Shown here one piece after another: positions 1,628 to 42,882 of a stretch of 48,274 nucleotides of DNA. Position numbers and translations under genes: made by a program. The DNA comes from Candidatus Eiseniibacteriota bacterium (GTDB lineage Bacteria > ARS69), in contig JBQTGV010000106.1 of the NCBI GenBank assembly GCA_052390515.1, positions 1-48,274 on the forward strand, in the 5' to 3' direction. Under the pieces are notes generated by a model. It had not been told where the DNA came from. It made no database searches and saw nothing but the letters and a program-made list of their open reading frames with translations. Every line of letters starts with the position of its first letter. The first letter of the stretch is position 1.

Positions 1628-3690
1628 GACTCGCCGGCCTCGTTCCACAGCGCCAGAGCGCGGGACTCGCCGGCCGCGTACCGCTGGTCGCGCTCATCGC
1701 GGCGGCGCTGCTCGCCTTCGCCCCGACGAACGCGTCGGCCAAGAAGTTGATCGTGCTCGGCTTCGATGGGCTCGATCCGGACATCGTGCGGCAGCTCGTG
1801 GACGAGGGCCGCCTGCCCAACATGGCCCGTTTGGCGAAGGAGGGCGGCGGCCTGCACGATCTGGCCACGTCCATCCCACCGCAGAGTCCCGTGGCCTGGT
1901 CCAACTTCATCACCGGACTGGACAGCGGCGGGCACGGCATCTTCGACTTCCTGCACCGGGATGCGAAGACCTACATCCCGTACCTCTCCACCAGCAAGCC
2001 GATCGAGAGCGAGGAGGAGCCGTTCAAGCTCGGCGAGTACTGCATCCCCCGCGGCGCCGGCGGCTTCGAGCTCCTTCGCCACGGGACCGCCTTCTGGGAG
2101 ACGCTGGAGCAGAACGGCGTGCCCTGCATGATCGTGCGCATGCCGGCGAACTTCCCGGTTTCGGGCAAGGCGACGTACGAGCTATCCGGAATGGGGACGC
2201 CGGACGTTCGCGGCACCTACGGGACGTTCTCCTTCTATACGACCGATCACGCCGAGTTCGCCGGCAAGAACATCGGCGGCGGCAACGTCTACAACGTGAC
2301 GCTCGCCGGCGGACAGGCCACTTGCAAGCTGGAAGGGCCGATGAACCCGCTCCTCTGCAACGAGAAGAAGCGCGCGTTCGTCGAGTTCACCGTGGACGTC
2401 GATCCGGACGAGGACTGGGTGCTGCTCTCGCTCGAGGGCGAAGAGCACCTGCTCGGCGCGGGGGAGTGGACGGAGTGGCTGCCGATCGAGCTCCCCTTCG
2501 CGCCGAACGCGGCGCTCTCGCTCGTGGCACCGCCGGTCAAGGTGATGGCGCGGTTCTACGTGAAGCAAGTGCATCCGCACCTGAAGATCTACGTCTCGCC
2601 GATGAACTACGATCCCATGTACGCGACCGACGACTTCGCCAACCCGCCGTCCTTCGCCAGGGAGTTGGCCGAGGCCGCTGGGCGCTTCGCCACGCAGGGC
2701 ATGCCCGAAGACACCAAGGCGCTCGACGAGCACGTCTTCACCGTGGACGAGTTCCTGAAGCAGGCGGGGAACGCGGGGCAGGAGATCCTCGACGAGTTCC
2801 CCTGGGTGCTCGACAAGTTCCAGCGGGAGTTCCCCGACAAGGGCTGCCTCTTCTACTACACGGGAAACCACGACCAGATCGGACACATGCTCTACCGCAC
2901 GATGGATCCGAGCCATCCCACCTTCGATCCGGCCGTCCACGCGCAGTTCGGAGAGGTGATGCCGGGGATCATCGAGCGGCTGGATCAGCTCGTCGGCTAC
3001 GCCCTGGAGCGCATCGACGACGACACGACGCTGATCCTCATGTCCGACCACGGCTTCGCCAGCTGGCGCCGCGCGATGAACGTCAACTCGTGGCTCGCGT
3101 CCGAGGGATACCTCACGCTCAAGAACCCGAACATCGAGAAGGACCCGGGCTTCTTCCTCAACGTGGACTGGACGAAGACCCGGGCCTACGCGCTGGGTCT
3201 GAACGGCCTCTACGTGAACGTGCGCGGGCGTGAGGCGAAGGGCATCGTCCCGGAGTCGGAGCGGCGGGGACTCCTGGAGGAGATCGCCTACAAGCTGGTC
3301 CAGACGAAGGACCCCGAGACCGGACTGCAGGCCGTCTCCAAGGTGTACCTGTGCGAGGACAGTTTCCACGACCGCGGGCACCTGGACGTCGGGCCGGACA
3401 TCATCGTCGGCTTCGCCAAGGAGATGCGCTCGTCGAACCAGTCCGCGACGGGGACGATCCCGCCGGAGGTGTTCAAGAACTGCGACACGGAGTGGAGCGC
3501 GGATCACTGCATGGATCACACGGTCGTGGCCGGCGTGCTGATGTCCAATCGGCCGCTGGCGAAGCCGGCGCCCGCGCTGCAGAATCTCGCCGCGGCCATC
3601 CTCGCCGAGTTCGGCATCGGCGAGTTCCCCGGCGACGCCGAGAAGGATCTGAAGGCCGTCGGCTACATCGCCGCGACCGCGACGCACTAG
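1624..3690 (+). CDS. Secreted AlkP-superfamily phosphodiesterase/sulfatase-like enzyme with C-terminal KDLKAVGYI tail
   Basis: Signal peptide (..LLAFAPTNASA), VLGFDG, PPQSPVAWSNFITG (Ser nucleophile region), HGIFDF, MSDHGF, WSADHC. GTGA overlap with the upstream stop codon. Confidence 0.88.
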   Translation: MRLAGLVPQRQSAGLAGRVPLVALIAAALLAFAPTNASAKKLIVLGFDGLDPDIVRQLVDEGRLPNMARLAKEGGGLHDLATSIPPQSPVAWSNFITGLDSGGHGIFDFLHRDAKTYIPYLSTSKPIESEEEPFKLGEYCIPRGAGGFELLRHGTAFWETLEQNGVPCMIVRMPANFPVSGKATYELSGMGTPDVRGTYGTFSFYTTDHAEFAGKNIGGGNVYNVTLAGGQATCKLEGPMNPLLCNEKKRAFVEFTVDVDPDEDWVLLSLEGEEHLLGAGEWTEWLPIELPFAPNAALSLVAPPVKVMARFYVKQVHPHLKIYVSPMNYDPMYATDDFANPPSFARELAEAAGRFATQGMPEDTKALDEHVFTVDEFLKQAGNAGQEILDEFPWVLDKFQREFPDKGCLFYYTGNHDQIGHMLYRTMDPSHPTFDPAVHAQFGEVMPGIIERLDQLVGYALERIDDDTTLILMSDHGFASWRRAMNVNSWLASEGYLTLKNPNIEKDPGFFLNVDWTKTRAYALGLNGLYVNVRGREAKGIVPESERRGLLEEIAYKLVQTKDPETGLQAVSKVYLCEDSFHDRGHLDVGPDIIVGFAKEMRSSNQSATGTIPPEVFKNCDTEWSADHCMDHTVVAGVLMSNRPLAKPAPALQNLAAAILAEFGIGEFPGDAEKDLKAVGYIAATATH

Positions 3691-3712
3691 CCCGCCCCCG
3701 CAAGGAGAGGAC

Positions 3713-3910
3713 ATGTTCGGAGGGAACCGGATCAAGCTGGAGAAGGACCTGCTGGAGAAGGTGAAGAAGTACGCGGCCGTTGCCGGCTACTCCTCGCCGG
3801 AGGAGTTCGTGAAGCACGCCCTCGAGAAGGAGATCGCCTTGCTCGAGGAGGCCGGCGACGACGAGGCGGAGCTGAAGAAGCGGCTCCAGGGTCTCGGCTA
3901 CATCTCCTGA
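3713..3910 (+). CDS. Small ribbon-helix-helix (CopG-like) protein with acidic linker and KKRLQGLGYIS tail
   Basis: AAGGAG RBS upstream. Pattern beta(RIKL)-helix-GYSS-helix(EEFVKHAL) is RHH-like. Lies in operon context. Confidence 0.75.
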   Translation: MFGGNRIKLEKDLLEKVKKYAAVAGYSSPEEFVKHALEKEIALLEEAGDDEAELKKRLQGLGYIS

Positions 3911-3921
3911 GCGAGGTTGCG

Positions 3922-4803
3922 ATGACGTTCGTGGTCCGACTCCTGGGTGGGATCGCCTTGCTCGGCGTGCTCGCGCTGCTGCGCGGCCCGGTGAACGCCG
4001 TCCTGCGAGTGCTGTTCGACGCGGTGCTGTTCCCGTTTCGAGGATTGCACCCGGTCGTCGGGCTCACCGTGCTGGCCGTGCCGTTCGCGGTGCTCGCGCT
4101 CGTGCTGTTCAAGGCCACGTCGGATCAGGCGGCGCTGGAGAAGATCAAGGCGAAGATCCACGCCGGGCTCTTCGAGATCCGGCTGTTCAACGACGACATC
4201 CGCGCGATTCTCCGCGCGCAGTTCGAGATCCTGGCGCACAACGGGCGGTACTTCCTGCAGAATCTGGTGCCGCTGCTCTGGATGATCGGGCCGTTCGTGT
4301 TCGTGATGGGACAGCTGCAGTTCCAGTACGGCTTCGAGGGACTCGCGCCGGGAGAGAGTGCCTTGCTCAAAGTGCAGCTGGCCGGGGAGAAGGCGGCGGC
4401 GCGACCGGATGCGGCGCTCACCGTGCCGCAAGGGCTGGAAGCGGAGACGTCGCCGGTGTGGTTCCCCGCGCGGAACGAGCTCGTCTGGCGGCTCGGAGCG
4501 CGAGCGGAGGGCAGCTACGACGTGCGCGTGAACGTCGGCGGCGAAGAGGTGACGAAGTCGGTGCGCGTGGGCGAAGGTCCCGCGCGGCGTTCGCCGCTGC
4601 GCGTGGCGCCGTCGGTGATGGACGAGATCCTGAACCCGGCCGAGGCGCCGCTGCCGAAGGCCGCCGGCATCGCCTCCATCTCGCTGGATTACCCCGAGGC
4701 CGGTGGGAGCTTCGCCGAGCTGTCGGCGTGGGTGTGGGCCTGGGTGGGTCTCACCATGGTGATCGCGTTCGCGCTGCGCGGGAAGTTCGGCGTGACGATC
4801 TGA
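3922..4803 (+). CDS. Membrane protein, DUF106/EMC3/TMCO1 (Oxa1-superfamily)-like N-terminal half plus a soluble beta domain and C-terminal TM
   Basis: Amphipathic helix, TM (HPVVGLTVLAVPFAVLALVLF), KATSDQ coiled coil, TM (LVPLLWMIGPFVFVMGQL), soluble region, final TM. GAGG RBS. Family call is by pattern only. Confidence 0.55.
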   Translation: MTFVVRLLGGIALLGVLALLRGPVNAVLRVLFDAVLFPFRGLHPVVGLTVLAVPFAVLALVLFKATSDQAALEKIKAKIHAGLFEIRLFNDDIRAILRAQFEILAHNGRYFLQNLVPLLWMIGPFVFVMGQLQFQYGFEGLAPGESALLKVQLAGEKAAARPDAALTVPQGLEAETSPVWFPARNELVWRLGARAEGSYDVRVNVGGEEVTKSVRVGEGPARRSPLRVAPSVMDEILNPAEAPLPKAAGIASISLDYPEAGGSFAELSAWVWAWVGLTMVIAFALRGKFGVTI

Positions 4804-4810
4804 GCGGCGC

Positions 4811-4843
4811 GAGGTCGCGGATTCGATTCCCGCTGCTCCACCA
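4811..4843 (+). other. Degenerate 3' half of a tRNA-Ala/tmRNA-like gene (probable att-site remnant)
   Basis: GAGGTC-GCGGA-TTCGATT-CCCGC-TGCTCC-A-CCA reads as variable loop, T-arm (one mismatch), acceptor strand 1 nt short with U70 and A73, and CCA. No 5' half upstream, where the sequence is CDS. Confidence 0.7.
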
Positions 4844-4844
4844 A

Positions 4845-4881
4845 CCCTGGGCCCGTAACCTTCGTGGTTGCGGGCCCAGGG
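4845..4881 (+). terminator. Strong 16-bp hairpin following the tRNA-like fragment
   Basis: CCCTGGGCCCGTAACC-ttcgt-GGTTGCGGGCCCAGGG (one G-U pair). No U-tract, so terminator function is uncertain. Confidence 0.6.
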
Positions 4882-4929
4882 CGTGGCGGGGGAAAGCCGC
4901 CTGAGCCGTCTCCGTAGAATCTGCGTGCG

Positions 4930-5065
4930 CCGGACCAAGGCGAACACCCATTTCGGACCAACGTGAACACCCGTTTCGGTCAAGGTGAACGCTGATTTCG
5001 GGATGGCGAACAGCCGTTTCGGTCAAGGCGAACACCGGTTCCGGACGCGGGGAACGGCTCTTCCC
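4930..5065 (+). repeat. About six ~22-bp tandem subterminal repeats (GAAC-N5-TT(T/C)CGG) at the IS21 left end
   Basis: gaacacccatttcgg / gaacacccgtttcgg / gaacgctgatttcgg / gaacagccgtttcgg / gaacaccggttccgg / gaacggctcttcc. Inverted copies at ~7590-7645. Typical IS21 transposase-binding repeats. Confidence 0.85.
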
Positions 5066-5162
5066 AAGGAGTCGAAGGGCGTGGTGCATCCTCCTCCACC
5101 GGGGACGGACGGCCCGCCCAGTATGGCGCTGAGCGCGGGACCGCCCGCCCCGGGGAGGAGGC

Positions 5163-6703
5163 ATGGGGGCGGCGAGGCTTGCGATGCGGAAGAGTCGAGA
5201 CATTCTACGGCTGAAGTGGGCGCTCGGGGTGAGCCACCGGCAGGTGGCGCGGAGCCTGGCCGTGGGGCTTGGGACGGTGGCGGAGACGCTGGAGCGGGCC
5301 GCGGCGGCCGGGCTCACGAGCTGGGCGCAGGTGGAAGGGCTGGACGAGCCGGCGCTCGAGGAGCGGCTGTATGGCGTTCGCCTCGAGGTGCCTTCGCGGC
5401 CGCTGCCGGACGCGCGCTATCTCCACCAGGAGCTCCACAAGAAGGGCGTGACGCTTCAGCTCCTGCATCTCGAGTACCTGGAGAAGCCCCCGACGGCTAC
5501 CGCTACACGCAGTTCTGCGAGCACTACCGGCGCTGGGTCAAGCGGCAGCGTCGCTCGATGCGCCAGATCCACGGCGCCGGCGAGAGGATGTTCGCGGACT
5601 ACTCGGGGCTCAAGCCCCAGTACGTGGATCGGTCCACCGGCGAGCTGATCGAGGCGGAGCTCTTCGTCGCGGTGCTCGGTGCCTCGAACTACACCTACGC
5701 GGAAGCGACACGGAGTCAGCAGAGCGAGGACTGGATCGCGAGCCACGTTCGCGCCTTCGAGTACTTCGGCGGAGCGCCGAGGGCGACCGTCCCGGACCAG
5801 CTCAAGAGCGGGGTCACGAAATCCTGCCGCTACGAGCCGGGCGTGCAGCGCACCTACGAGGAGATGGCGACGCACTACGGGACGATCATTCTTCCTGCTC
5901 GGCCTTCGAGCCCCAAGGACAAGGCGAAGGTGGAAGTCGCCGTGCAGATCGCGGAGCGCTGGATCCTCGCGAGGCTGAGGAACCGGACCTTCTTCTCGCT
6001 CGCAGAGCTGAACGCGGCCATCGCCGAGCTGCTCAAGGAGCTGAACACGAAGAAGATGCGCGTGTACGGGAAGAGTCGGCGCGAGCTCTTCCTCCTGCTG
6101 GATAAGCCGCAGCTCAGGCCGCTTCCGCCTGAGCGCTTCGAGTACACGACGTGGAAGAAGGCGCGGGTGAACATCGACTACCACGTCGAGCTCGAGTGGC
6201 ACTACTACTCGGTGCCGCATGCGCTGGTGCACGAGGAAGTCGAGATCCGTGCGTCGAAGTCGGTGGTGGAGATCCTCCACCGCGGAAAGCGCGTCGCCTC
6301 CCATGTCCGGAGCTACGTGCGCGGCGGGCACGCCACGGATCCTTCGCACATGCCGAGGGCGCACCGGGCACACCTCGAGTGGTCGCCGTCCCGGCTGATC
6401 CGTTGGGGGGAGAAGATCGGGAAGTCCACCGGACAGCTCGTGCAGGCGATCCTCGACGATCGGCCGCACCCCGAGCAGGGCTACCGGTCATGTCTTGGAA
6501 TCCTGCGCCTAGCGAAGCGCTACGGGGACGAACGCCTGGAGGCCGCGTGCGCGCGAGCGCTCCTCGTGCGCGCGCGTTCGTACCGCCATGTGGAATCGAT
6601 CCTGAAGAACGGCCTCGATCGCATGGTGCCCGTGAGCACCCCCGCGCGAGCGCCGAGCATGCTCGTCCACGAGAACATCCGCGGCCCGGAGTACTACCAC
6701 TGA
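5163..6703 (+). pseudogene. istA: IS21 DDE transposase IstA, frameshifted at ~5487-5491
   Basis: N-terminus MGAARLAMRKSRDILRL..LHLEYLEK in one frame. DGYRYTQFC, FADYSG, VPDQLKSGV and PKDKAKVE in the -1 frame. One base is missing in a C5 run. Confidence 0.9.
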
Positions 6704-6808
6704 GAGAAGGGAGGAAGAACGACCTCCTGGGAAGCCCCAGGACGCGAGATCTCACCAGGGGGAGGCATCCTGCTATCCCCCCTTTTCCCCGCACCAGAGG
6801 AGGAACGG

Positions 6809-7549
6809 ATGCTGACCGAACCCACCGTCGAGAAACTCAGGACGCTGCATCTCGACGCGATGGCGCAGGGTTACCTCGAGCAGACGCAGAAGCCCGACAT
6901 CGCCGAGCTTCCCTTCAACGACCGCTTCGGGCTCCTGGTGGACGCCGAGTACCTCGCGCGTGAGAACAAGCGTCTCTCCAGGAGGCTGCGCGAGGCGAAG
7001 CTCCGCCTGACGCAGGCCTGCGTCGAGGACGTCGACTACGCGCCGAAGCGTGAGCTCGACAAGGCGACTTTCCGCCAGCTCGCCACCTGCCGCTGGGTCC
7101 AGGAGCACCTCAACGTGCTCATCACCGGCTCCGCGGGAACCGGCAAGAGCTACCTCGCCTGCGCGCTCGCCAACCGGGCGTGCCGCCAGGGCTACCGGGC
7201 GCTATACTGCCGCGCCTCGCGTCTGTTCGACGAGCTGCTGCTCGCCCGGGCCACGGGCACCCACCTGCGCCTGCTCGCCAAGCTTGCGCGCATGGACGTG
7301 CTCGTGATCGACGACTGGGGCCTCAAACCCTTCACCGACCAGGAGCGCCTCGATCTCCTGGAGATCCTGGAGGACCGGTACGGCTCGCGCTCCACCATCA
7401 TCACGAGCCAGCTTGCGCCGAACAAGTGGCACGAAAGGCTGGGCGAGCCCACAATCGCGGATGCCATCCTCGATCGGCTCCTTCACGGAGCCTACAAGAT
7501 CGCCCTCAAGGGTCCTTCGAAAAGAAAGGAGGAGGTCGCCGAGCCCTGA
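6809..7549 (+). CDS. istB: IS21 helper AAA+ ATPase IstB
   Basis: Walker A GSAGTGKS, Walker B LVIDDWG, IITSQ, ADAILDRL. GAGGAGG RBS. Confidence 0.97.
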   Translation: MLTEPTVEKLRTLHLDAMAQGYLEQTQKPDIAELPFNDRFGLLVDAEYLARENKRLSRRLREAKLRLTQACVEDVDYAPKRELDKATFRQLATCRWVQEHLNVLITGSAGTGKSYLACALANRACRQGYRALYCRASRLFDELLLARATGTHLRLLAKLARMDVLVIDDWGLKPFTDQERLDLLEILEDRYGSRSTIITSQLAPNKWHERLGEPTIADAILDRLLHGAYKIALKGPSKRKEEVAEP

Positions 7550-7968
7550 GACCACCGCGTCGCTTCGCTCCGACAGGAGCCTGACGCCGCGTTCCCGATC
7601 CGGAAGCGTTCACGATGGCCGGAACGGGTGTTCAGAATGGCCGGAATACGCAGAATCTCCGTGAGAAGCGCATCGGGCCATTTAGACACGCCGATGCGGA
7701 AGTTCAAGGACCCCGATGATCAGTACCTTGGGCGCTGGGACTTGCTGGGTCCCGGATAAACCTGCCCGACCAGCGAATTACAGGGGCCGAGCATCGGGCT
7801 GCTTGGAAGCACGCTCTCCTTGCTATTCGGTATCGGCCTCGGGCTCGCGACGCACAGTCTCCGCCGAACCATTGGATGAGATCTTCGGGAGCGGAGCAGC
7901 CGGAATAGGTGGGCGAACCGGTGGCGGAACTGGTAAGGGGAGCCCCGGCTGGGGCCGGAGGACTCTAG

Positions 7969-8955
7969 GTGCGAGACGTGCTGGAAGCGAGTATCGAAGC
8001 CGCACTTCGGGTGAGTATCAACGTTACACACAAGCGGCTCAGACGTCGTCTCGGGCATGTACGAAAGTGCCGAGCGATTCGCATCGGGGGGTTTGAGCGA
8101 CGCCTTGTGCATCGATGGGGCCGAACACTTGATCTCTACGCGCTCGCGTACGAATACACTGTCGGTCTGGGAGAACGCTTCTCCAAGGAGAGTCTGCCAG
8201 GCGCAACGGATCCAGTGCGTGTCGCCACGCTCGCCCGATTGCACGCTCGGGCTTGCTTGGTTTCAGTGGAAGTGCACAGTCTGCTGCGTTGTGGGTTTGC
8301 GAGTGCCGCGTTGGCACGATGGAGAACGCTGCACGAGACGGCCGTCGTTGCTCGAGTTCTGCGGGATCGGCCGAGCGATCTGGCTCAACGCTACCTGGAC
8401 TACGAAGTCGTAGAGAGCTTCAAGGCGGCGGTAGAGTTTCAGGAGTACGAGCACTTCCTGGCAGAGGACCCGTTGCCCCCAGAAGACGTGGAGGAGATTC
8501 GAGCGGATCGGGAGCGAATCCTCGTGCGCTACGGGAAGGAGTTTGACAAGCCTTATGGATGGGCCGCGGAACTGCTTCCCGGAAAGACGACCCTGAAGGA
8601 ACTGGAGGAAGTCGCGGGGCTGCAAGGGTGGAGGCCCTACTACCGCATGGCCAGCGATGGTGTCCACGCTGGCCCGAAGGCTATCGCCTGGAACCTGGGG
8701 CTGGAAATGGACGCCGCCGGGCTTCTCGCTGGACCGAGCAACGTGGGTTTGGCGGATCCAGCGTACAACGCGATCTGGTCGCTGAGAGATGTGACTGCGT
8801 CGCTCCTCTCGCAGAGGCAAGACTTCGACGGCCTAGTCCAACTCGGCGTCTTGGAGCGGCTCCTCGAGGAGATCGGCGAAGCGGCCATGCGTGCCCATCG
8901 GGCGCTGGAGAGGCGGGCCCGCCTGGCGCGGCGTCCCCTCAGAGAGAGGGCATGA
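7969..8955 (+). CDS. DUF5677-like (HEPN-related) protein
   Basis: LLRCGFASAALARWRTLHE, YGWA and YYRMASDGVH (Rx6H). All-helical. Start uncertain. Confidence 0.7.
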   Translation: MRDVLEASIEAALRVSINVTHKRLRRRLGHVRKCRAIRIGGFERRLVHRWGRTLDLYALAYEYTVGLGERFSKESLPGATDPVRVATLARLHARACLVSVEVHSLLRCGFASAALARWRTLHETAVVARVLRDRPSDLAQRYLDYEVVESFKAAVEFQEYEHFLAEDPLPPEDVEEIRADRERILVRYGKEFDKPYGWAAELLPGKTTLKELEEVAGLQGWRPYYRMASDGVHAGPKAIAWNLGLEMDAAGLLAGPSNVGLADPAYNAIWSLRDVTASLLSQRQDFDGLVQLGVLERLLEEIGEAAMRAHRALERRARLARRPLRERA

Positions 8956-8956
8956 G

Positions 8957-9781
8957 ATGGCGAAAGGGTCCCGCGATCTCGTGACAATCATGAAGAGTGA
9001 AGGCCCCGTTGCGTTCCTGAGCGCAGTACTTCAAGACTTCGACGCGGTCGGCACTGGACTTCTTTCACGCGTAGCGGATTCCGGCAAGCTGGCGCCATTC
9101 TTGATTGGCGGGCGCCTGATTCAAGCGGCACGTTCCGGCCAGTTTTTCGAACAGCTTGCTCGCGAGGCGGAGGATCTGAGGAGGGTGGGGAGGATAGAAG
9201 ACGAGTACATGGGCGTCGGATCAAGCCAAGGCTTGCTTCCAGGAGTTGTGGGCTGCGCTGGAAGATCCACCTGTTGACGAGGTGAAGTTCGAAGCCCTGA
9301 AGGCTGTCTTTCTGACGGCATGCACTGAGGACATCTCCAACCGCGACGACATCGAACCGAGGCTCCTCATGACCGTGGTCCGTGGCCTTTCCACGGGCGA
9401 GCTCCTTTTGCTGGTGCAGGTCTTCAAAGAAATCGGCCGCACCGTATCCGCGGCCGGGCACCTCAGTACCGAAGCATGGATGACTGAGATCGCACCGGGA
9501 CCGGATTCAAGACCTCCGAGATGGCACGGATCTACTGCGAGAAGCTGTGGGAGAAGCGCCTTGTTGCCGGAAAGAGGCGGCCGTCCGATGGGAGTCTGGA
9601 CATCGGCAAGGGGCCGACGGTCACGCCACTTGGGCAACGGCTCTGTGCCTTCCTCCAGCACTGCGATGCGAATCTTAAGCCCCCCGCCGTGACCGGGAAA
9701 CTCGGATGCCCGAGCACGACGACCTGTTCGACGGGCTCCACGCCATGGTGGAGGGGGCGTTCGGGCGGCGCTCGGGGTTGA
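8957..9781 (+). pseudogene. Abi-alpha/DUF4393-like protein split by two frameshifts (~9212, ~9496)
   Basis: Three overlapping ORFs join into MAKGSRDL..IEDEYM/SDQAKACFQEL..KFEALKAVF..LLMTVVRGLSTGELLLL..WMTEIA/TGFKTSEM..LWEKRLV..VTPLGQRLCAFL. The end resembles a winged-helix C-terminus. Confidence 0.55.
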
Positions 9782-10166
9782 TGTGCTTCCTCGCTTGACC
9801 GGGGGACCGAGCTCGACCGGAATGACCCGACCTGCCCCGATCTGCCCCGGAAACCTTACCGGCGATGTACCGGCGGGTGACGGAGCGTCGGTGAAGAGGC
9901 GGTCCCGGAAGCTGTTGTGGGAGCAGAAGATCCGCTGGCGGCTGTCGTCCACCGGGCCCTTGCAGGCCCCACAAAACTGTACCGAAACCGCGAAATCGGC
10001 TCCGGCGGGTCAAATCTGGTCAGTTCGGGTCAGGGGGGCGACTGCGTAGATTGCGGAATCTACGACGTGGGAAGGGTCCCGCGTGTTGCGCGGCAGGGGC
10101 CGACTCAATAGGCTCGTGGCCGAGTGTCAACGGACGGTTCCGGTTGCCTACGTCACGCGGAGGGGC

Positions 10167-11810
10167 ATGTTGGCGGGGAAGAAGACGACGACGCCCGCGG
10201 AGCCGAACATCCTGTACTACGGCGACAACCTCGACGTTCTCCGGCGTCACGTGCCGGACGGGTCGGTGGATCTCGTCTACCTGGACCCGCCGTTCAACAG
10301 CAACCAGAACTACAACGTCCTCTTTGCGGAGAAGAACGGCACAGCTTCAAGCGCCCAGATCCACGCCTTCGAGGACACGTGGCACTGGGATAAGGTCGCG
10401 GCCGCCGCCTACCAAGAAGTCGTCGAAGGCAGTGGCCGGCCATCGGAGGCGATGCAGGCATTTCGCACGCTGCTCGGCGATAACGACATGATGGCCTACC
10501 TGGCCAACATGGGCATCCGCCTCCTTGAACTCCGCCGCGTGCTGAAGCCGACGGGCTCTATCTATCACACTGCGACCCGACGGCGTCTCACTACCTGAAA
10601 GTCCTCATGGATGCGATCTTCGCCGCCCGGAACTTCCGAAACGAGCTCGTCTGGCAGCGCTTCGGTTCTCACAATGACCCGAAGCGGTGGGGACGTGTAA
10701 CCGACTCGATTCTGTTCTACACGAAGTCGAAGGACTACAAGTTCAATCCGGTGCGCGGATCGTACAGCGAAGAGCACATCACGAAACGTTTTCGCTACAA
10801 GGATCCCGACGGCCGTCTGTTCTGGCCCAACACCTGTCTCGCCCCCGGCGGACGTGGACCGCGCTACGAGTGGAATGGTCATACGCGAAACTGGCGATTC
10901 ACCAAGGAGAACATGCAGAAGCTGCATGACGCGATTCAGTTGTACTACAGCAAGGAGGGTATGCCGTACCGGAAGAACTACCTCGACGAACTACCGGGCC
11001 GACTCATTCAGAGCCTTTGGACGGACATCAAGATGACGAAGAGCGGAGCGGAGAAGCTCGGCTCCCACGCAGAAGCCGGAGGCGCTCCTTGAGCGCATCA
11101 TTCTCGCGAGTAGTAATGAGGGAGATACCGTCCTTGATCCGTTCTGCGGGTGTGGGACAACGATCGCCGTCGCACACCGGGTCAAGCGCCGTTGGATCGG
11201 CATCGACGTCACGCACCTCGCGGTAACACTCATGAAGCATCGTCTCCGAGATGCGTTCGGTGAGGAAGTATCCTACGAGGTAATTGGCGAACCTACTGAT
11301 CTTGCCGGCGCCCGAGCACTTGCCCAGGATGATCCCTATCAATTCCAGTGGTGGACCCTTGGCCTCGTTGGCGCTCGGCCCGCAGAGCAGAAGAAGGGTG
11401 CTGACAGGGGGATCGACGGTCGGCTGTACTTCCACGACGAGCTCGGTGGCGCCACTAAGCAGATCATCTTCTCTGTCAAGGCTGGCATGACCGGACCCTC
11501 ACACGTACGTGACCTCCGCGGCGTCGTCGAACGAGAGGAGGCAGCGATGGGCGTCCTGATCACCATGCAGGCACCCACACAACCGATGCGCAAGGAAGCG
11601 GCTAGCGCAGGGTTCTACGATTCGAAGTGGGGCAGTCGACACCCCACGCTGCAGCTTATCACGGTTGAGGAACTGCTCGACGGTAAGCGACTTGATATGC
11701 CTCCGATCGGACAGGTCAACAGGACGTTCAAACGGGCGAAGAGGACCAAGGAGAAGCCGCCCGAGAAGCTCGCGCTGCCTCTCAAGAGCCCAGAGGGTGA
11801 GGTCTTTTAG
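10167..11810 (+). pseudogene. Beta-class N6/N4 DNA methyltransferase fused to a C-terminal Mrr-like PD-(D/E)XK domain, with two frameshifts (~10568, ~11063)
   Basis: [58 protein letters not shown]-terminus [26 protein letters not shown]. Confidence 0.88.
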
Positions 11811-11963
11811 CCGGCAGGGCTCGAAGTGAGCGTGTCGGTGATGAACGGCCACATTCCGCAGGTGAGACCGAACTAGCCACGCACTGGAGGGAGGGGCACG
11901 TCGAGTCTTGGCGAAGCGCTCACTAGCGGCAAATCTCCCACCTCGCAGCCGGACGGTCGCCTC

Positions 11964-14900
11964 GTGACTGCCGATTCTCCAGGTTCCCGACACTTGATCA
12001 TCACCGTACACGGCATCCGCACGTTCGGTGAGTGGCAGGAACGCTTCGAGTCGCTGCTGCGTTCATCGAGTGTCGTGCCAGACGTGATTCACTACAAGTA
12101 CGGTTTTGTGTCAGTGCTGGCCATTGTGGTCCCCTTGTTCCGTTGGTTAGCCGTTCGTCGATTCCGCCGCTCGCTAGTGTCTCTGCTGCGATCTCGCGAA
12201 TGGGACCGAGTAGACGTTGTCGCGCACAGCTACGGCACCTTCATCGTTGCATGGACGCTGCACGAACTGAGAAGGGACAAGTCGCTGCCAGCGATTCACA
12301 CGTTCATTTGCGCCGGGAGCGTACTGCGCTCCACCTTTCCTTGGGACGCAATTCTGAGCACGCGATTGTACCGTCTCGTGAACGAGTGCGGCCTGCGGGA
12401 CGCGGTTCTTCTGGCAAGCCAGTTCTTCATTCCGTTTCTCGGGATGGCCGGTCGAATCGGATTCACTGGGATAACTGGGGATCGCATTCGCAATCGGTTC
12501 TTTCGATTTGGTCACGGTGGCTACTTCTCGTCACACGATGGTGGCGACCGAGACCAATTCATGCGACAGCACTGGCTTCCGCTTCTTCAGAGTGATGCCG
12601 CGATTCCTGTCATTGACGAGCGTGCCGGTACGCTGATCGAGGGCTACGCCACCCTTCTCGCCAGGAATGCTGACCCGATCAAACTGGTGGCCTTCGCAGG
12701 GATACCGGTTCTCGCGTGTCTATACGTCACCCACCTGTACCTGGAGTCTGAACGCTTGCGGCGCGTCGATGTCGCGGAGCGTCTGGCGAGTGCTGCGTTT
12801 AGCATGCAGATTCAACCCCCTCATGACCGCTTCGACTTCGCCAGTTCCAGAATGCACTCGCTTCATCTCGCCGTGCTTTCCGAGCGTCTGTCGCCGAACC
12901 CGATCGCCAGTTCTGTTCTCTGGACGGCGATTCAGGGACAGCCTGAGATTCGCCACCGGCTTGTACATGACGGTCCTGTACGCGGTGTCGCATTGAACGG
13001 AGCGGGGACTCTACTCGCAACGTCTTCGGCAGCGGGCACCCTGCGGATCTGGGATCTCTCTCGCGGGGAGATGCTTTCAAACTTCGGCGTGGGCCACGCA
13101 ACCTCCAACATCGCACTCAACAGAAGTGGTTCCGCGGTTCTGGAGGTCGACGAATCAGGCGTCCTCCAGATCTGGGACGTCTCCACACGAGAGCTGCAGG
13201 CTAAGTTTGCCTACGATAGCAAGGATGGCTTCGTGGCACTAAGCGCAAACGGCCGGCATGCCGCGTTTTCCGGACGCGACCTTGTGCTGCTCGATGTCGG
13301 TGAGGGGAGGATAATTCGGGCCGTGGAACGCTGCTGGTTCAGCTCTGGTGAGTTTACCTCCGACGGTCGCACTTTCGTCGCAAGACGTCGAGCCGCGCAT
13401 TCCGTGCATGTCTTCACCGGTTCACAATTCGAGAGAGATCGAGAGGTCCAGCTTCCCGAGTATAGGCGGCTGTGGGTCTCTCCGCAGGGCGGCTACGTCG
13501 CAAGTTATCTAAGCACTAAGGGAGGCCCGACCGAGCTCTCGGTGACAGAACTGACCTCGGGCGAGGCGACTCAGACCCTGTTGCCGCCGACGCACGCCTC
13601 GCCAGGGCCCGTGGTGGCGTGGTCGAACGATGAAACGACGCTTGCCGCGGCGGCTGGGACGGTTCTTCGGATCCTCGACTTGCGCACAGGTCGCGCCCAG
13701 GAGGCGGAGGTCGAGTCCAGGATCCGCGCTATTGACTTCCTGGACGAGACAGCAAGTCTAGTCACGGCAGATTCCGATGGCACTGTGATGGTACGACAGT
13801 TGAGCGACCTTCGAGAGAGTGCACGCATATACCTTGACGCACAGGTGGCAGAGCTTCAAGCCTTGGAGGGGCCGCCTCGTATACTTGTTTCGAACTCTCA
13901 GTTCTCGGCACATCTCGTCACTATCTGGGATCTCGAACTCCGCGGACGTACAACCCTCCGTTGTGGCCTGGGATTCCGGACTATGCGGCTATCACCGGAC
14001 GGGTCACTTGTCGTGGCGGCGGCCGGCGACACTCTCGTTGGCATGGACAGGGACGGACGCCAGCTGTGGACGGCACCAGAGAGCGGTGTCAAGTGGATCA
14101 CCTTCTCCCGATGTGGCACATGGTTTCTGGCTTGTACTGAGGATGGACAGACCCGGGTACGAGACGCGCGCTCGGGTCGCACTCTGTCGTCGCTGGTTGC
14201 CCAGCGCGAAGTCTGCGCGTGCTTGGCACTCGATGCAACCTCGTATGCATTGGGATTGAGCGACGGGGTCATTGAGATTCGCGACGCGGTGACGGGCTCT
14301 CTCTTGGCGACGGCACGGGACGACACGGTCGTGGAAATCCGCGATATTGATGAGGGGGAGGCGGTCGTGTCATCGACGACCGTGGTGTCCGCGGTTCGCC
14401 ATCTCGCGGTGTCAGCAAACGGCAGTCGGCTGGCTTCTGGACACGATACTGGTACGGTGATCGTGTGGGACCTTCCAAATCTCCGGGAGCTACGTCGCGT
14501 CTATCCCGTCGTTGGGAGCGATCTCGTCTCACTCGCCCTCAACCCGACCGGCTCCGTAGTCGCGGCAGGGGTGAGCGGAACGGTTAGTCTATTCCACGTT
14601 CCCACCGGCATCCAGTATGGACGGATCAGGTCCGGAGATGTGGACATGGTCTGTCATCCGAGTAGGTGGCGCATCGCAGTCGGAATGGGGAAGGACAACA
14701 CACTTAATGCGGGGATCTACTCGTTGATTACAGGCAGGCTACTTGTAGACCTCAGGGACGGAGGAGGCGGCCCACATAAGCTCTGCTTCGATCCTCAAGG
14801 TCGGTACATTGTTGGCGTTCAGAGCGCCCACCCTGCAACGCTCCAGCTGCGTTCGGCCGAGAGCGGCAGGGTGCTTGCTGCTTACGAGTTCCCTTCAGAG

Positions 14901-15098: not shown

Positions 15099-15252
15099 GA
15101 AGCGGCTTCACGGCGATGGCACGCTCGATGCCGGCCACCTACCGCTCTACCACGCGTTTCAATGGACCCGTCGTCGCTGGGCAGGCAACGGTCGCGTAGT
15201 GGCTTGCCTCTGCGCCGCCCCGTCCAGTCAGTGGGAGGTGGACCGATCGACT

Positions 15253-20490: not shown

Positions 20491-21573
20491 ATGAGGATCG
20501 GGATCGTCGGGCTTCCCGGAGCGGGCAAGTCGACGCTGTTCAACGCGGTGACCCAGGGCAAGGCGGAGACCGGGCACTTCGGCGGCCAGGGCCAGGTCCA
20601 CCGAGGCCGCGTTCTCGTGCCGGACCCGCGCCTGGACTGGCTCGCCGAGCACTACCACCCGAAGAAGACGACCCCCGCCACGGTGGAGTTCCTGGACGTT
20701 CCCGGGCTCAAGCCCGGCTCGACGGAGAAGGGGTCCGCGGCGCTGCTCGCCGATCTTCGCACGGTGGATGCGCTGCTCGAGGTGGTCCGCGTCTTCGACG
20801 ACCCGTCCGTGCCGCATCCCGACGGGAGCATCGACCCGGCGCGGGATGCCGACCACCTCGAGACCGAGCTGCTGCTCGCCGACCTCGTGGTGGTGGAGAA
20901 GCGCCTGCAGCGCGTCGAGTCGGATCTGGGCAAGGGCGTCGACAAGAAGAACCTCGAGCCGGAGCGCGAAGTTCTGCTGAAGCTGAAGGGCGCGCTCGAG
21001 GAGGGAAGGGCGGCGCGCGCGGTCCCGCTCGCGCGGAACGACGAGCAGCGCATCCGCGGCTACGCCCTGCTCACCCGCAAGCCGAAGATCCTCATCGGCA
21101 ACGTGGGCGAAGACGACCTCGCCGGCGGCGAATCCGACCGCGCGCTCGCCGCGAAGGCCGAGGCGGACAGCGTCCCGTACCTGCGCATCTCCGCGAAGAT
21201 CGAGGCGGAGATCGCGCAGATGGAGGCGGCCGACGCCGCGCTCTTCCTGGGCGAACTGGGGATCGAAGAGCTCAGCCGCGATCGGGTCGTCCGCGCCGCC
21301 TTCGACACGCTCTCGGTGATCTCCTTTCTAACGTTCGGCGAGGACGAGTGCCGCGCGTGGACCCTGGCGGACGGCTCGGACGCGGTCGAAGCGGCCGGCA
21401 AGATCCACTCGGACATCGCGCGGGGGTTCATCCGCGCCGAGGTGGTCGCGTTCGACGCGCTGCAGGGCGCCGGATCCTGGAATGCGGCGAAGGAGGCCGG
21501 CAAGCACCGCCTGGAAGGCAAGGAGTACCGCATGCAGGACGGCGACTGCGTGATCTTCCGGTTCAACGCGTAG
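20491..21573 (+). CDS. ychF: YchF-like Obg-family ATPase (divergent)
   Basis: [65 protein letters not shown]. Confidence 0.9.
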
Positions 21574-23339
21574 TGTGGGCGGCGGCGCTGCTCGCTGCGG
21601 CGGCCTACGCGCTGCTGGAGCTCGCTTTCGTCGCGGAGCGCAACCTGCTCCTGCCCTGGAAGGGTGAGCATGCGTCGCTCGGCGTCCTGTTCTTCGCCAT
21701 CCACGGCGCTGTGGCCCTCGCCGCCCTGCTCGCCGCTCGTCTCGTGTTCCGGCCGGCCGTCCCCTTCGCTCCCGCGGCGGTGCTTCTGGCCATCCATGCC
21801 GTGACCGCCTTCCGGGAGCGCTCCGGCGTTCTCCCCCGCGATGTCGCCGGCACGCTCGTGACCGCAGGAATCCTCGTCAGCGTCCTCGGCGCGGCGGGCG
21901 TCCTCGGCTGGCTACTCCGTGCCCGGCCGGAGCGGGCGGCGAGGCTCGGAGTGGCGACCGGCGTCGTGCTGCTCGCCGCCGGCGCTGTCCGCATGGCGAC
22001 GGTGCGGCCGCCCGCGGAGGCCGTTCCTTCGCCTCCTCGCCCGGCGTCCGAACCGCTCGTCGCCGCGGAGACCGGCCAGCGCGTCTTCGTCTTCGGGTTC
22101 GACGGGGCTGCCTGGGACGTGCTCGATCCCATGATGGCGGCCGGCGAGCTGCCGCATCTCGCTGCGCTCGCGGCCCGCGGTCGTACGTTCGCCGTGGAGA
22201 CGATCAGTCCGACGTTCTCCCCAGTCATCTGGACGACCGTCGCGACGGGGACGGACCGCCTCGCGCACGGGATCCACGACGTCGTGCAGACGGTGATGCC
22301 GGGAGGCGTGCGCCTGCCGCGGTCCATCGCGCGCACGGCGTTCCTGACCAAGACGACCGGCGTGCTCTTCCGCGGCCTGGACCGGCGCCGACTGCTGGGC
22401 TCGGCCCCCTACCGGAGCAATGACGTTCGCACCGCATCCGTGTTCGAGGCCGCCTCTGAGGCCGGTCTGTCCACGTCCCTCATCGAGTGGTACGTGACGT
22501 GGCCCGCGGTGCCGCTCTCCGGCGTGACGGTGTCGGACCGCTTCCACCTGCGAGACGCCCAGGCGGACTTGCCGGGCCTCGTGCATCCCGCGGGCCTGCA
22601 GGCGGCGCTCGCGCCGCACGTCGTGGACGCCGAGACGATCCCGCTCCTGGACGTCCTCGATCTGGTGGACCTCTCCGGACTCGACGAGACCGGGCAGGCG
22701 AAGTGGGTCTCGGAGCACGCGCGCTTCGTGCGGGAGATGAGACTGAACCTCGCGCGGGACCGGACCACGCGCAACGTCGCCGTCGATCTGCTCTCTCGGG
22801 ACTCGGAGTGGAAGCTGTTCGCCGTCTACTTCCGGGCGGTCGATCTCTCACACCACCTCGCCTGGCGTTTCCACCGCGGCGAAGGCGGCGAGCGCGAGCC
22901 CCTGCGCACCGCGGTGCGGCGCTATCACCGGATGATGGACGACATCGTGGGCGAGGTCCTCGCCAAGGTGCCCGAGGGGACGACCGTGCTCCTGCTCTCC
23001 GACCACGGGTTCGAGGACGTCTTCGACCATCGCCGCGGACCCGACGGCGTCGCCATCCTCGCCGGTGGCGCGACCGCTCCGTCGACGCGGCGGGACCGCA
23101 TGTCCGTGTACGACGTCGCGCCGACGCTCGGAGCCGTTCTCGGGCTGCCCGCCGCGCGGGACCAGCGCGGCGTGGTCCGCGGAGAGTGGCTCGTCCCGGG
23201 CTTCCTCGAGGCGCACGCGGTGCCGCCGGTGGCCACGTGGCTACGGGAGGATCGCGCCCTGCCCACGGAAGGGGGGGACGCCGAGGTCGTCGAGGCCGAG
23301 GAACTGGAGCGGCTGCGCGCTCTCGGTTACATCGAGTAA
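21573..23339 (+). CDS. Membrane-anchored AlkP-superfamily enzyme (N-terminal TMs) with C-terminal [12 protein letters not shown] tail
   Basis: GTG start overlapping the ychF stop (TAGTG). About 5 TMs, then [38 protein letters not shown]. Confidence 0.88.
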
Positions 23340-29462: not shown

Positions 29463-29486
29463 TTTCCAGCCGCCCCGGACTCGTCG

Positions 29487-36202: not shown

Positions 36203-36336
36203 AAGGACCTCCTGGAGGACTTCCGAGGGTACGCGCAAGGGACCTCGGGGAGAAGCCCGGTTCTCGCTGGGTGCCGTTCTCGCGGTTGTATGGGCTCCTC
36301 GCGTGTGGTACGAACGGGCGGCCCCCGAGGGACGCC

Positions 36337-36966: not shown

Positions 36967-37129
36967 CGCGCAGGACGCGCTCGCATCCTGCGAAGCCGGC
37001 GGGCGCCAGGATTGACCGTCCTTGGCGACGGCTGGCGCTTCTGCGGCTCCCCTGAACCGGCACCCGTTATGCAGTAACCCCCGGCGAGCGTTCCACGCCG
37101 CCAAGCTTCCCCCGCGCGGAGATGCGGTC

Positions 37130-37381: not shown

Positions 37382-37400
37382 GGCTCCGTCTCGCGGAACC

Positions 37401-38138: not shown

Positions 38139-38147
38139 GTTCCCTCC

Positions 38148-39680: not shown

Positions 39681-39760
39681 GCGGGCCTTTCGATCCGTGG
39701 GCGGCGGAGAGTATCAGATGGCGGAAGAGGCGTCGCGGGGGGCGTGGGCAGGCGGTCCGC

Positions 39761-40978: not shown

Positions 40979-41004
40979 GGGGCTCGCTTTCGTGGCGCTC
41001 TCCG

Positions 41005-42882
41005 TCACTGCCCCACGTACCCCAGCGCGCGGAGCTGCTCCAGGATCTGCTCGTCCGCAGCCGCGTTCTCGGCCGTCGCTCGTGCTTCTCTCGGCGCCTC
41101 GTAGGACGGCACCGTGCGGATCGGGAACCGCTCCCAGAACGCGGGGTCCACCAGCTCGCGCGCGACCCGCCCGTCCATGTCCTCCGGCACCGGGATGCCC
41201 AGCAGCGCAAGCACCGTCGGCGCGACGTCGTACACCGACACCGCGGCGCGCTCCCGCGATGCGATGACCGGCCCGCCGGCCATGACGAAGAACCCGTCCG
41301 GCTTGCGCGCGTGCGCCCACTGCGTGTCCTCCCAGCCGTGGTCGGAGAGCGCGATCACCACCGTGGCGCTGTCCGCGTGCTGCAGGGTTCGCTCCAGCAG
41401 CCCGTCGCAGAACGCGTTGTAACTGTCCACGACGGATCGCAGCCGCTGGCCGCGCGCCGACGCGGCGGCGTCGGGCGGGAGGTCGCGGTACTTCCAGGTC
41501 ACGTGGTGGGACCCGTCCATGCCGCGGTAGTAGACGGCGCCGAGCTGCCAGTCCGGCACCTGGGCGAAGGCCGCCGGCACGATCCCCGCCGTCGTCAGGT
41601 CGCGGGACATCTCCGCGGCGAGCGTGCGGAACTCCTCGGGGAAGCTGCGCTTCAGCTCTTCGCGGCCGGCCGCGTCCAGGTCGCCGACTTCCGCCATCGC
41701 CACGACGCGGTCCATCACGTCCGCCGGCCTCACGAGGAACGGCTCCAGCACGGGCGCGAGGCTGTCGGGATGCACCGCCGTGCGCAGCGCGTCCCCCTCC
41801 AGCAGGTGGAAGCGGTCGGAAACCTGGACTCCCAGCACGGGCTCGACCGGATGGGTGACGTACCACTCCAGGCCGACGAAGCGCATCCCGAATCCCTCGA
41901 CGATTTCCCACAGCCGCCGCGTCCTCACGTTGCCGGACGCGTAGAGACCGAGCGGGAGCAGCCCCGCGCGATCGGCGAGGCGCACGTCCAGCTTGAGCAT
42001 CTTGGTGAGGTGCCGGAACTGCCGCGGCATGTGCGGGACAGGCGGCAGCCCGAGCGGCATCCGGGTGAACACGTGGCTGGAGACGCCGTGCTTCTCCAGC
42101 GTCTTCCCGCTGGCGATGCTCGTCCACAGGTTCGGCGAGTACGTGGGGATGATCGACTCCAGCCGCGCGGTGACGCCGCGTTCGGCCAACCCCGTGAGCG
42201 CCGGCATGCGCCCGGACTCGAGCAGCGGGTCGAGAACGCTCCAGGATCCACCGTCGATGCCGACGATCAGGACGCGAAGCCCCGTGTCGGGAACCTCGCC
42301 GACCTGATCCGGCGTGACGTACTCCGCGGGACTGCTGTCCGGCGCAGCGCCGTTGGCCACGAGCGCGACGACTCCGACGGCCAGGGCCAGCAGCCCGGTT
42401 CCGCGGAGCGTGCGCAGGGTCGCGGCGGCGGGGCGGTACGAGGCGGCGCGCGTCGCCAGGAGCAGGGCGAGTCCCCACACCGGGAGCGCCGCCGCGGTGA
42501 CCACGTTCATCGTCGGGCGCGTGTGCACGAGCGTGTGATCCCGATAGAGCGACACGGCCAACACGAAGAGGAGAACCGCCGGCGCCGCGAGAACCGTGAC
42601 CGCCGCCCCGACCGGACGCCACCGCCCCACGAGAGCGCCCGCCAGGGCGGCGCCGGACGCCAGCAGGCCGAACTGCGCCACCAGGATCACCCACAGCACG
42701 GCATGGGCGGGTCCGACCGGCCAGGACTCGTTCGCCGGAATGAACCAGGCGAGCTCGGCCGTGGCGAACGCGAGGGCCCAGACCCAGCCCACGCCGAGGG
42801 CGGCGCCCAGGCCCGTCCCGCTCCAGGATTCGTGCGTTCTTGCGGGGGAGGCGCTCATCGGGCCGAGCCTATCACGGAGCAT
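41005..42882 (-). CDS. Membrane-anchored AlkP-superfamily enzyme (paralogue of 21573-23339) with C-terminal LEQLRALGYVGQ tail
   Basis: About 5 TMs, IVGIDG, PTYSPNLWTSIASG, DGSHH, LSDHGW, YDVAPTVL..DMDGR. Start may be 42858. Confidence 0.9.
   Translation of the reverse strand: MLRDRLGPMSASPARTHESWSGTGLGAALGVGWVWALAFATAELAWFIPANESWPVGPAHAVLWVILVAQFGLLASGAALAGALVGRWRPVGAAVTVLAAPAVLLFVLAVSLYRDHTLVHTRPTMNVVTAAALPVWGLALLLATRAASYRPAAATLRTLRGTGLLALAVGVVALVANGAAPDSSPAEYVTPDQVGEVPDTGLRVLIVGIDGGSWSVLDPLLESGRMPALTGLAERGVTARLESIIPTYSPNLWTSIASGKTLEKHGVSSHVFTRMPLGLPPVPHMPRQFRHLTKMLKLDVRLADRAGLLPLGLYASGNVRTRRLWEIVEGFGMRFVGLEWYVTHPVEPVLGVQVSDRFHLLEGDALRTAVHPDSLAPVLEPFLVRPADVMDRVVAMAEVGDLDAAGREELKRSFPEEFRTLAAEMSRDLTTAGIVPAAFAQVPDWQLGAVYYRGMDGSHHVTWKYRDLPPDAAASARGQRLRSVVDSYNAFCDGLLERTLQHADSATVVIALSDHGWEDTQWAHARKPDGFFVMAGGPVIASRERAAVSVYDVAPTVLALLGIPVPEDMDGRVARELVDPAFWERFPIRTVPSYEAPREARATAENAAADEQILEQLRALGYVGQ

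Follow-up and report, generated by a model that had tools for sequence, protein, structure and literature searches.

The stretch of DNA analysed here (the window) is a contig of 48,274 nucleotides (C106; JBQTGV010000106.1) from the Candidatus Eiseniibacteriota genome GCA_052390515.1, an assembly of 4.27 Mb with 70% GC, 223 contigs and 95% completeness. A reading made from the letters of this window (the sequence-only reading) had pointed to a short C-terminal peptide, an acidic helix followed by a Leu-Gly-Tyr-type ending, on three enzymes of the AlkP superfamily and on one tiny ribbon-helix-helix (RHH)-like protein. We refer to this peptide as the LGY tail. New here are a genome-wide tally of the tail, a profile test by which two of the four window tails are canonical, a constraint on the length of the tether that carries it, and a four-gene operon with an RHH protein that ends in LGYIS. 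The genes and tails concerned are the following (window coordinates):

2..1627, + strand: 'AlkP-A' (P0125), first gene of the operon, cut by the contig edge, without LGY tail
1624..3690, + strand: P0001 ('AlkP-B'), PF01663 enzyme with signal peptide and an insertion; atypical end, VGYI plus seven residues
3713..3910, + strand: P0002, RHH-like protein of 65 residues without signal peptide, ending L-Q-G-L-G-Y-I-S-stop
3860..3910, + strand: LGY-type tail of P0002, hydrophobic spacing as in the enzyme tails, one residue and then stop
3922..4803, + strand: P0124, membrane protein, fourth gene of the operon, distantly EMC3/TMCO1-like
21567..23339, + strand: P0003 from its probable true start; about five transmembrane helices, PF01663 AlkP domain, canonical LGY tail
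23292..23339, + strand: LGY tail of P0003, canonical, read from the open reading frame end and the tail alignment
41005..42882, − strand: P0004; about five N-terminal transmembrane helices, PF01663 AlkP domain (NPP-type, Thr nucleophile), linker of 12–13 residues, canonical LGY tail
41005..41058, − strand: LGY tail of P0004, helix with acidic start, then L-G-Y-V-G-Q-stop

The four C-terminal strings singled out by the sequence-only reading sit exactly at the ends of the genes for P0001, P0002, P0003 and P0004. P0001, P0003 and P0004 match PF01663 with 99.2, 73.3 and 64.4 bits, respectively (Pfam gathering cut-off, 23 bits). The open reading frame (ORF) of 951 residues that ends with P0003 (20484–23339) is a composite: its first ~360 codons overlap a YchF GTPase gene (20491–21573) in another frame, and in this overlap the YchF frame carries the proper codon-position GC pattern. 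Because the YchF gene occupies the first third, the long ORF is not one gene, and P0003 most likely starts near 21567 (~590 residues), with a few bases of overlap with the YchF stop. For P0004, an alternative gene call in the collection begins 8 codons further in (617 residues).

How often does such an ending occur in the genome? Among the 13,557 stop-to-stop ORFs with 150 or more residues (4.97 million residues, whole genome), the pattern [LIVM]GY[ILVM] is found 195 times, and 23 of these 195 occurrences have exactly one residue before the stop, where ~0.5 would be expected per position. The strict form, [LIVM]xx[LIVM]GY[LIVMT] plus 0–3 residues, ends 29 ORFs of at least 400 residues genome-wide; the first 25 listed of those outside the window are all PF00884 or PF01663 proteins, and two more ends of a GYT variant both belong to ORFs from the PF00884 genome search. 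The PF00884 and PF01663 searches, when merged and with three merged intervals split by hand, give 46 AlkP-superfamily genes. The tail ends 30 of them (29 strict, one with an L-S-Y-P variant), and in another 5 the helix is internal and is followed by a Gly-rich linker and a tetratricopeptide repeat (TPR) domain; one gene, P0001, has an atypical end, and ten are without tail, three of which run off a contig. About three quarters of the AlkP-superfamily genes in this genome (35/46) bear one unannotated peptide, as no Pfam or NCBIfam model covers the tail in the window proteins or in the outside-window carriers that were scanned.

A profile built from 29 enzyme tails and run against 33,620 ORF ends, in which all 29 score 21–33 bits, shows how the four window tails relate to each other. 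The tails of P0004 (rank 9, 29.8 bits, E = 5.9e-07) and P0003 (rank 29, 21.5 bits, E = 0.00027) are canonical, whereas those of P0002 (rank 41, 8.4 bits, E = 4.3) and P0001 (rank 161, 4.8 bits, E = 60) are not retrieved significantly, and the idea of a tail common to all four proteins stands for the first pair and is not borne out by the profile for the second. Since its profile score is not significant, the membership of P0002 rests on its spacing, its conserved end and its operon linkage to AlkP genes; the spacing Phi-x-x-L-G-Y-I-x-stop is identical to that of the enzyme tails, including the one trailing residue. An end of VGYI plus seven residues is found in 3 of 45 P0001-type orthologues, a fourth case being an ORF that merges two genes. 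As judged from these orthologues, the P0001 tail is a weak, lineage-specific variant.

Alignment of 27 tails of the PF00884 and PF01663 types yields D-x-x-x-x-E-x-L-R-A-L-G-Y-V-x, with invariant Gly and Tyr and with the preceding Leu in at least 90%, and on the strength of these 27 tails one consensus would be common to both enzyme families. The alignment of 43 P0004-family sequences, with a mean column identity of 25%, has only 7 invariant columns, two of which are G437 and Y438. The LGY tail would be an autonomous packing module of ~15 residues, often opened by an Asp/Pro helix cap, that consists of an amphipathic helix of ~10 residues whose hydrophobic positions are −8, −4 and −1, counted from the Gly. 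This invariant Gly would end the helix, and the Tyr with the following Ile or Val would form a short extended stub. In the AlphaFold2 (AF2) model of the soluble part of P0004, with an overall confidence (pLDDT) of 93, the core up to about residue 410 (98) is followed by a 12-residue linker (68) and by helix 423–435 (78–81), and the end is non-helical. Model and alignment together describe the tail of P0004 as one 13-residue helix behind a linker of 12–13 residues, in agreement with the earlier suggestion that the tail lies beyond the folded domain after a short linker. That it contains no transmembrane segment was likewise well seen: the motif is followed by 0–3 polar residues (seven in P0001) and the stop, and there is no basic cluster. 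A membrane-anchoring amphipathic helix was rejected by inspection, given the acidic helix start and the Arg and Glu residues throughout.

The tether between core and tail is constrained in its length. For enzymes of the PF01663 type, core anchor and Gly lie 33–38 residues apart in 40 of 43 sequences (median 35, range 24–38); for those of the PF00884 type, 40–53 residues separate a D-x-x-D-P-x-E anchor from the Gly (median 49, n = 18, TPR-fused forms included). In both enzyme types the tether is unconserved in sequence and constrained in length, indicating a fixed geometry of the helix relative to the catalytic domain. In an AF2 model of LGY helix, linker and TPR domain, made with 4 alignment rows, the helix has a pLDDT of 54–62, the linker lies below 50 and the TPR domain reaches 92–98. 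Complex predictions of the 31-residue P0004 tail with the P0004 AlkP core or with the TPR domain of a fusion from contig C68 gave ipSAE values of 0.04 and 0.02 (mark, 0.32); made without controls, these speak neither for nor against binding. The P0004 model has an NPP fold: its best PDB matches in Foldseek are Xanthomonas NPP and ENPP1/3, with a probability of 1.00, although these are distant, with TM-scores of only 0.41–0.44. As the result gives no aligned ranges it is silent on the tail.

Although LGY enzymes are routinely annotated as 'sulfatases', they bear a threonine in place of the formylglycine motif. None of the 21 PF00884-type carriers compared contains C/S-x-P-x-R in the stretch inspected, and the aligned position reads, by eye, T-x-P-S-(H/x) in most; the sole Cys-containing, near-canonical sulfatase ORF (contig C73, 15332–16939) has no tail. 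By this motif, the PF00884-type LGY carriers are not formylglycine sulfatases. In the P0004 family, residues D26, T70, H276, D330 and H331 are conserved in at least 90% of the 43 aligned sequences and D272 is invariant; these are candidates for the Thr nucleophile and the Asp/His metal ligands.

The carriers include proteins with lipobox-like N-termini (by eye), signal-peptide proteins and proteins with 4–5 N-terminal transmembrane helices (P0003 and P0004 among them), as well as at least one AlkP protein (contig C118, 25321–26994) whose domain begins at residue 5, leaving no room for a signal peptide. Carriers appear to lie on both sides of the membrane, which a self-contained packing element fits better than a compartment-specific machine. 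The helix is not confined to AlkP enzymes either: in all three arylsulfotransferase (ASST)-family ORFs (C73, 16906–18339; C58, 45952–47418; C35, 32483–33727) an L-x-x-L-(G/P)-Y helix lies N-terminal to the propeller, between it and a membrane anchor or lipobox. A sixth LGY–TPR piece is found at the edge of contig C9 (6,075 bp). This contig holds three consecutive sulfatase-like LGY–linker–TPR genes in tandem, the first of them cut by the contig edge, and in these fusions a conserved D-P-(K/H) motif behind the LGY helix opens the TPR part. In the window itself, the tailed genes have unrelated housekeeping genes around them, and no peptidase recurs as a neighbour.

The small protein P0002 matches PF01402 (RHH_1) with 15.4 bits (E = 0.018), below the cut-off of 20.5; five of 20 family members match this model (best E = 0.0013), and Atlas neighbours of P0002 are auto-named CopG-type. 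The sequence-only reading placed the tail on two unrelated folds, which holds for AlkP versus an RHH-like protein, although the RHH assignment itself is weak with PF01402 below its cut-off. Mnt is an RHH repressor with a C-terminal oligomerisation helix, and P0002 resembles it in the order of an N-terminal RHH-like unit, a short linker and a C-terminal helix. Unlike Mnt, P0002 falls below the PF01402 cut-off, is only a predicted DNA binder, and has a tail that copies the ending of the AlkP enzyme tails.

At E ≤ 0.001 the P0002 family counts 2,335 proteins, and the 120 matches listed are mostly 64–66 residues long and 66–95% identical. Family members lie at 512 genome loci, in metagenome-assembled genomes (MAGs) labelled Gemmatimonadota, Krumholzibacteriota, Acidobacteriota, Planctomycetota, Fibrobacteraceae, Myxococcota and Eisenbacteria. 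The end reads GLGYIS in 20 of 20 aligned homologues. Eighty of the 512 loci were fetched and the gene could be located in 73, with ends GLGYIS in 67, GLGYMS in 4 and GLGYIQ in 1. AlkP genes on the same strand lie upstream in 58 of these 73 loci and a membrane protein of ~280 residues is encoded downstream in 36, both being orthologues of the window's own genes. From the P0001-type gene to the small RHH-like gene the gap is −1 to 65 bp (n = 45), and from there to the membrane-protein gene mostly −4 to 24 bp. Because orthologues, strand and short gaps recur across loci, the four-gene unit is considered conserved, across several phyla: as read from gene order, the operon is AlkP-A, AlkP-B, RHH-LGYIS and the ~280-residue membrane protein, here at window positions 2–4803 with its 5' end cut by the contig. 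No TPR gene is present in this operon, neither in the located loci nor among the window genes.

Orthologues of AlkP-A have two N-terminal hydrophobic segments on either side of a conserved Y-I-G-P-G-A-G motif and, behind these, a stretch rich in Arg and Lys; by the positive-inside rule the catalytic domain of AlkP-A probably faces the cytoplasm. AlkP-B orthologues carry signal peptides or lipoboxes. Orthologue comparison and motif count show that both enzymes are normally without tail, so that this operon would provide its tail apart from them, on the small protein. P0124 itself, the membrane protein, has no Pfam match; PF01956 (EMC3_TMCO1) is recognised in 5 of 37 orthologues, at best with E = 4.6e-5, in agreement with the Atlas lead for P0124 (score 0.83), and P0124 may be a bacterial Oxa1-superfamily (DUF106-like) protein with an extra periplasmic beta-rich domain. 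Among nine longer proteins found, three apparent RHH–AlkP fusions have an Arg-rich, out-of-frame-looking stretch, behind which the small ORF is complete from the Met onward; these were set aside as probable frameshift or read-through gene calls and not taken as Rosetta stones.

Of 65 P0004 homologues from outside this genome, 42 terminate with the motif and one with an LGYFE variant; another 16 have the motif internally, 15 of these with TPR Pfam domains, and six, some of them truncated, are without it. A back-translated tail pattern gives 7–24 matches in 11 of 11 genomes of the same family, versus 0–4 for the reversed control, and most of 29 distant genomes are at background; as the phylum of this genome is one family in the collection, with 10 genomes at ≥80% completeness, it offers no contrast between families. 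These counts agree with the statement in the sequence-only reading that such tails are widespread on sulfatase- and AlkP-type proteins. Searching 1.84 billion proteins with a 30-position tail profile retrieved 110 representatives at E ≤ 0.001. The motif forms the end of 103 of these, and 80 have fewer than 170 residues (gene fragments or small proteins); a Pfam scan of 20 of the 30 representatives of at least 170 residues identified 15 AlkP enzymes. Two others among the 20, from other organisms, are sensors or regulators: in P0200, a BlaR1-like M56 sensor, seven LGY units follow one another in tandem, ~28 residues apart, and there is a beta-helix domain, and the zf-HC2 anti-sigma factor P0222 has one LGY helix behind its transmembrane segment and a second at its C-terminus. 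The motif recurs in Gemmatimonadota-, Krumholzibacteriota-, Acidobacteriota- and Planctomycetota-like MAGs. Portability across folds, which had been proposed from the four window proteins, is therefore well founded, with the element terminal on AlkP genes, ahead of TPR domains, N-terminal in ASSTs and arrayed in sensors elsewhere.

What could a peptide of this kind do? The tails are near-identical on catalytic domains that are ~25% identical, suggesting that they answer to one common constraint, either each other or a shared receptor, and not to each enzyme's own diverged surface. We tentatively favour an oligomerisation or docking clasp, with a probability of about 0.4, in which both protein binding and its target are inferred. 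A helix held on a short tether of fixed length beside the catalytic domain would pack on the equivalent helix or domain of a partner subunit, and the clasp would in this way tie Thr-type AlkP-superfamily envelope enzymes into homo- or hetero-oligomers. On the ASSTs, the RHH-like protein and the anti-sigma and BlaR1-like sensors, the same helix would plug these proteins into the same assemblies or oligomerise them. We prefer this clasp because it satisfies the shared constraint on the tails, the fixed tether length and the higher pLDDT of the helix next to an AlkP core (78–81) than next to a TPR domain (54–62), and because C-terminal extensions of AP-superfamily enzymes set a precedent for oligomerisation (PMC5870055).

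Several observations weigh against the clasp. The difference in pLDDT is confounded by alignment depth (43 versus 4 rows), and values of 78–81 would also be possible for a helix that is confidently predicted but free. The seven-copy array, with its acidic spacers, resembles multivalent recruitment of a separate receptor more than a subunit clasp, and the recurrent LGY–linker–TPR fusion is a Rosetta-stone hint at a TPR receptor. With only 8.4 bits against the enzyme-tail profile, the P0002 tail could be an independent look-alike. In the PDB, homologues of the sulfatase-type enzymes align only to ~30 residues before the tail, and the tail profile retrieves no solved AlkP-superfamily chain at E ≤ 10. 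More ambitiously, the LGY helix might be the 'plug' of a peptide-coded envelope assembly network, with AlkP-fold domains or the helices themselves as 'socket'. A 15-residue code would then wire dozens of Thr-type enzymes, ASSTs, BlaR1-like and anti-sigma sensors and a cytoplasmic RHH regulator, with the four-gene operon as its core, where a tail provided in trans on the small protein would couple enzyme occupancy to gene regulation. Taken as a whole, we regard this network as unlikely.

Instead of a clasp, the tail may be an adaptor that, in the manner of a dockerin or of a C-terminal peptide bound by a hub, recruits many enzymes, ASSTs and sensors to one platform by binding a separate receptor or scaffold common to them all, for which TPR domains are the foremost candidate. 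A Gly-rich linker and a TPR domain come after the helix in five AlkP genes and in the contig-edge fragment, the same arrangement recurs in 15 of the 65 P0004 homologues, and near-identical tails on such diverged catalytic domains suit a shared receptor as well; tandem arrays and anti-sigma carriers elsewhere would suggest multivalent or competitive binding to it. However, AF2 places neither the helix nor the linker with confidence beside a well-predicted TPR domain (54–62 and <50 versus 92–98, with only four alignment rows), the narrow range of tether lengths is not explained by a free receptor, and the RHH operon is without a TPR gene. In addition, a TPR clamp of the EEVD type depends on a free carboxylate, and the fused LGY forms offer none. 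We therefore consider a common receptor rather doubtful, although it is the least improbable of the alternatives. Less probable still is that there is no single system, and that the enzyme tail is the cis-packing end of one AlkP clade while the ends of the RHH protein, P0001 and the ASSTs are unrelated helix–Gly–aromatic caps. The low scores of P0002 and P0001 (8.4 and 4.8 bits) would fit this, as would the fixed tether length, which suits packing in cis, and chance does produce similar strings in solved unrelated proteins (the C-terminus of Era, E = 0.52; POTRA1 of TamA, E = 0.14). The RHH tail nonetheless shares the stop spacing of the enzyme tails and keeps GLGYIS in every one of the 20 aligned homologues, in 45 loci its gene follows an AlkP gene at a distance of −1 to 65 bp, the helix is found in all three ASSTs, and seven-copy arrays occur outside any AlkP domain.

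Could the invariant Tyr itself be the point of the tail? As a pseudosubstrate or acceptor arm, it would enter the active site of an AlkP enzyme or ASST as an autoinhibitory plug or as a phenol acceptor of phosphoryl or sulfuryl groups. The carriers are phospho- or sulfo-transfer enzymes, Thr-type AlkP and ASST, a short tether of fixed length suits a reach into the enzyme's own active site, and the extreme C-termini of choline sulfatase touch loops at the active-site entrance (PMC5870055). On the other hand, there is no sign of any modification of the tail, neither the RHH protein nor the sensor arrays possess an active site themselves, and strictly conserved Leu residues and Gly favour a packing helix over a flexible arm, leaving this arm with a small chance only. 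The sequence-only reading had leaned toward a docking, sorting or processing tag with a logic like that of PEP-CTERM or the C-terminal domain (CTD) of the type IX secretion system (T9SS), in which a dedicated peptidase, transpeptidase or translocon would read the tail. Many paralogues per genome carry it, as is the case for known sorting signals; the majority of carriers are lipoproteins, have a signal peptide or span the membrane several times; and the site is at the extreme C-terminus at a fixed distance from the stop, with one trailing residue in 23 cases. Yet neither a transmembrane segment nor a basic cluster follows the motif, which is internal in the TPR fusions and N-terminal in the ASSTs, so that a free C-terminus is not needed; it is present on proteins without signal peptide (P0002 and the C118 protein) and in tandem arrays elsewhere; and the tailed genes of the window lie amid unrelated housekeeping genes without a recurrent neighbouring peptidase. 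For these reasons the sorting or processing part of that proposal is not supported, and we consider it very unlikely.

The closest structural parallel to the favoured clasp is found within the superfamily. According to PMC5870055, C-terminal extensions mediate oligomerisation in choline sulfatase (SmCS), in phosphonate monoester hydrolases (PMHs) and in dimeric arylsulfatases. Like the LGY tail, these are C-terminal segments beyond the AlkP core with conserved residues; the SmCS/PMH-type extension packs on the partner subunit near the active-site entrance, which for the LGY tail is only proposed (PMC5870055). The known extensions are described there as longer, intertwined and subfamily-specific, in contrast to an LGY helix of ~15 residues that spans two Pfam families and is portable beyond AlkP. 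A PDB search with a tailed sulfatase-type enzyme returned 6fny, 2vqr and 4upi among others, and homology to the SmCS/PMH type of extension was not found, as phmmer aligns 4upi, 4upk and 7oz8 to the query no further than residues 407–418 of 450. PDB searches with a tailed enzyme, the RHH family profile and the tail profile yielded no solved AlkP enzyme with the tail; the only matches of the tail profile are weak look-alikes, namely the C-terminus of Era, POTRA1 of TamA and a designed protein.

Among peptides of other systems, the C-terminal peptide of FtsZ and the C-terminal tail of SSB consist of a short conserved helix and an extended stub at the C-terminus behind an unconserved linker, an architecture that the LGY tail shares; their linkers vary greatly in length, whereas the LGY tether is fixed at ~12–14 residues. 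Dockerins are Ca-binding domains of ~70 residues with cohesin as partner. They too are small modules on many enzymes of one genome and occur in tandem on scaffold-like proteins, but the LGY helix is a 15-residue peptide and not a domain of that size. The EEVD peptides of the Hop/CHIP type are C-terminal peptides recognised by TPR domains and require a free carboxylate. The LGY motif is likewise an acidic C-terminal peptide and is often fused to TPR domains, but when fused it is internal and has no free carboxylate, and AF2 places the helix on the TPR domain without confidence. In the PEP-CTERM/exosortase signal the motif is followed by a transmembrane helix and a basic cluster, and the T9SS CTD is a folded domain of ~70–100 residues. 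Both resemble the LGY tail in their C-terminal site on many paralogous envelope proteins; the LGY tail, unlike these, has no transmembrane helix, basic tail or folded CTD, and is also found internally, N-terminally and on proteins without signal peptide. We found no description of the LGY motif in the literature searched, in which subscription journals and supplements were not covered. The LGY element is best classed with docking or oligomerisation peptides.

If the helix organises complexes, it would be a handle for finding the substrates of abundant, uncharacterised envelope enzymes, it would explain the many enzyme–TPR fusions, and it would link these enzymes to sensors and to a small regulator. 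The LGY helix can also be used as an annotation feature, in the form of a hidden Markov model for a new short domain or motif.

The remainder of the window holds a few features apart from the tail. At 44156–47325, a DegP/HtrA-type protease (Trypsin_2 plus PDZ) adjoins an alkylation-repair pair, Ogt and Ada/AlkA, in an ordinary arrangement, and no link between this protease and the tail was found. Directly downstream of the operon lies an IS21-type insertion element (4985–7549) with an IstA-like transposase (rve plus Mu-transposase C domain) and an IstB ATPase. Beside it, the region of ~7700–15100 has a lower GC content (59–62% versus ~70%) and encodes DUF5677, a DNA methylase fragment, an Mrr/NA-iREase1-like nuclease and a WD40 protein of 1,044 residues; from its gene content and composition, this region looks like an acquired, defence-type island.

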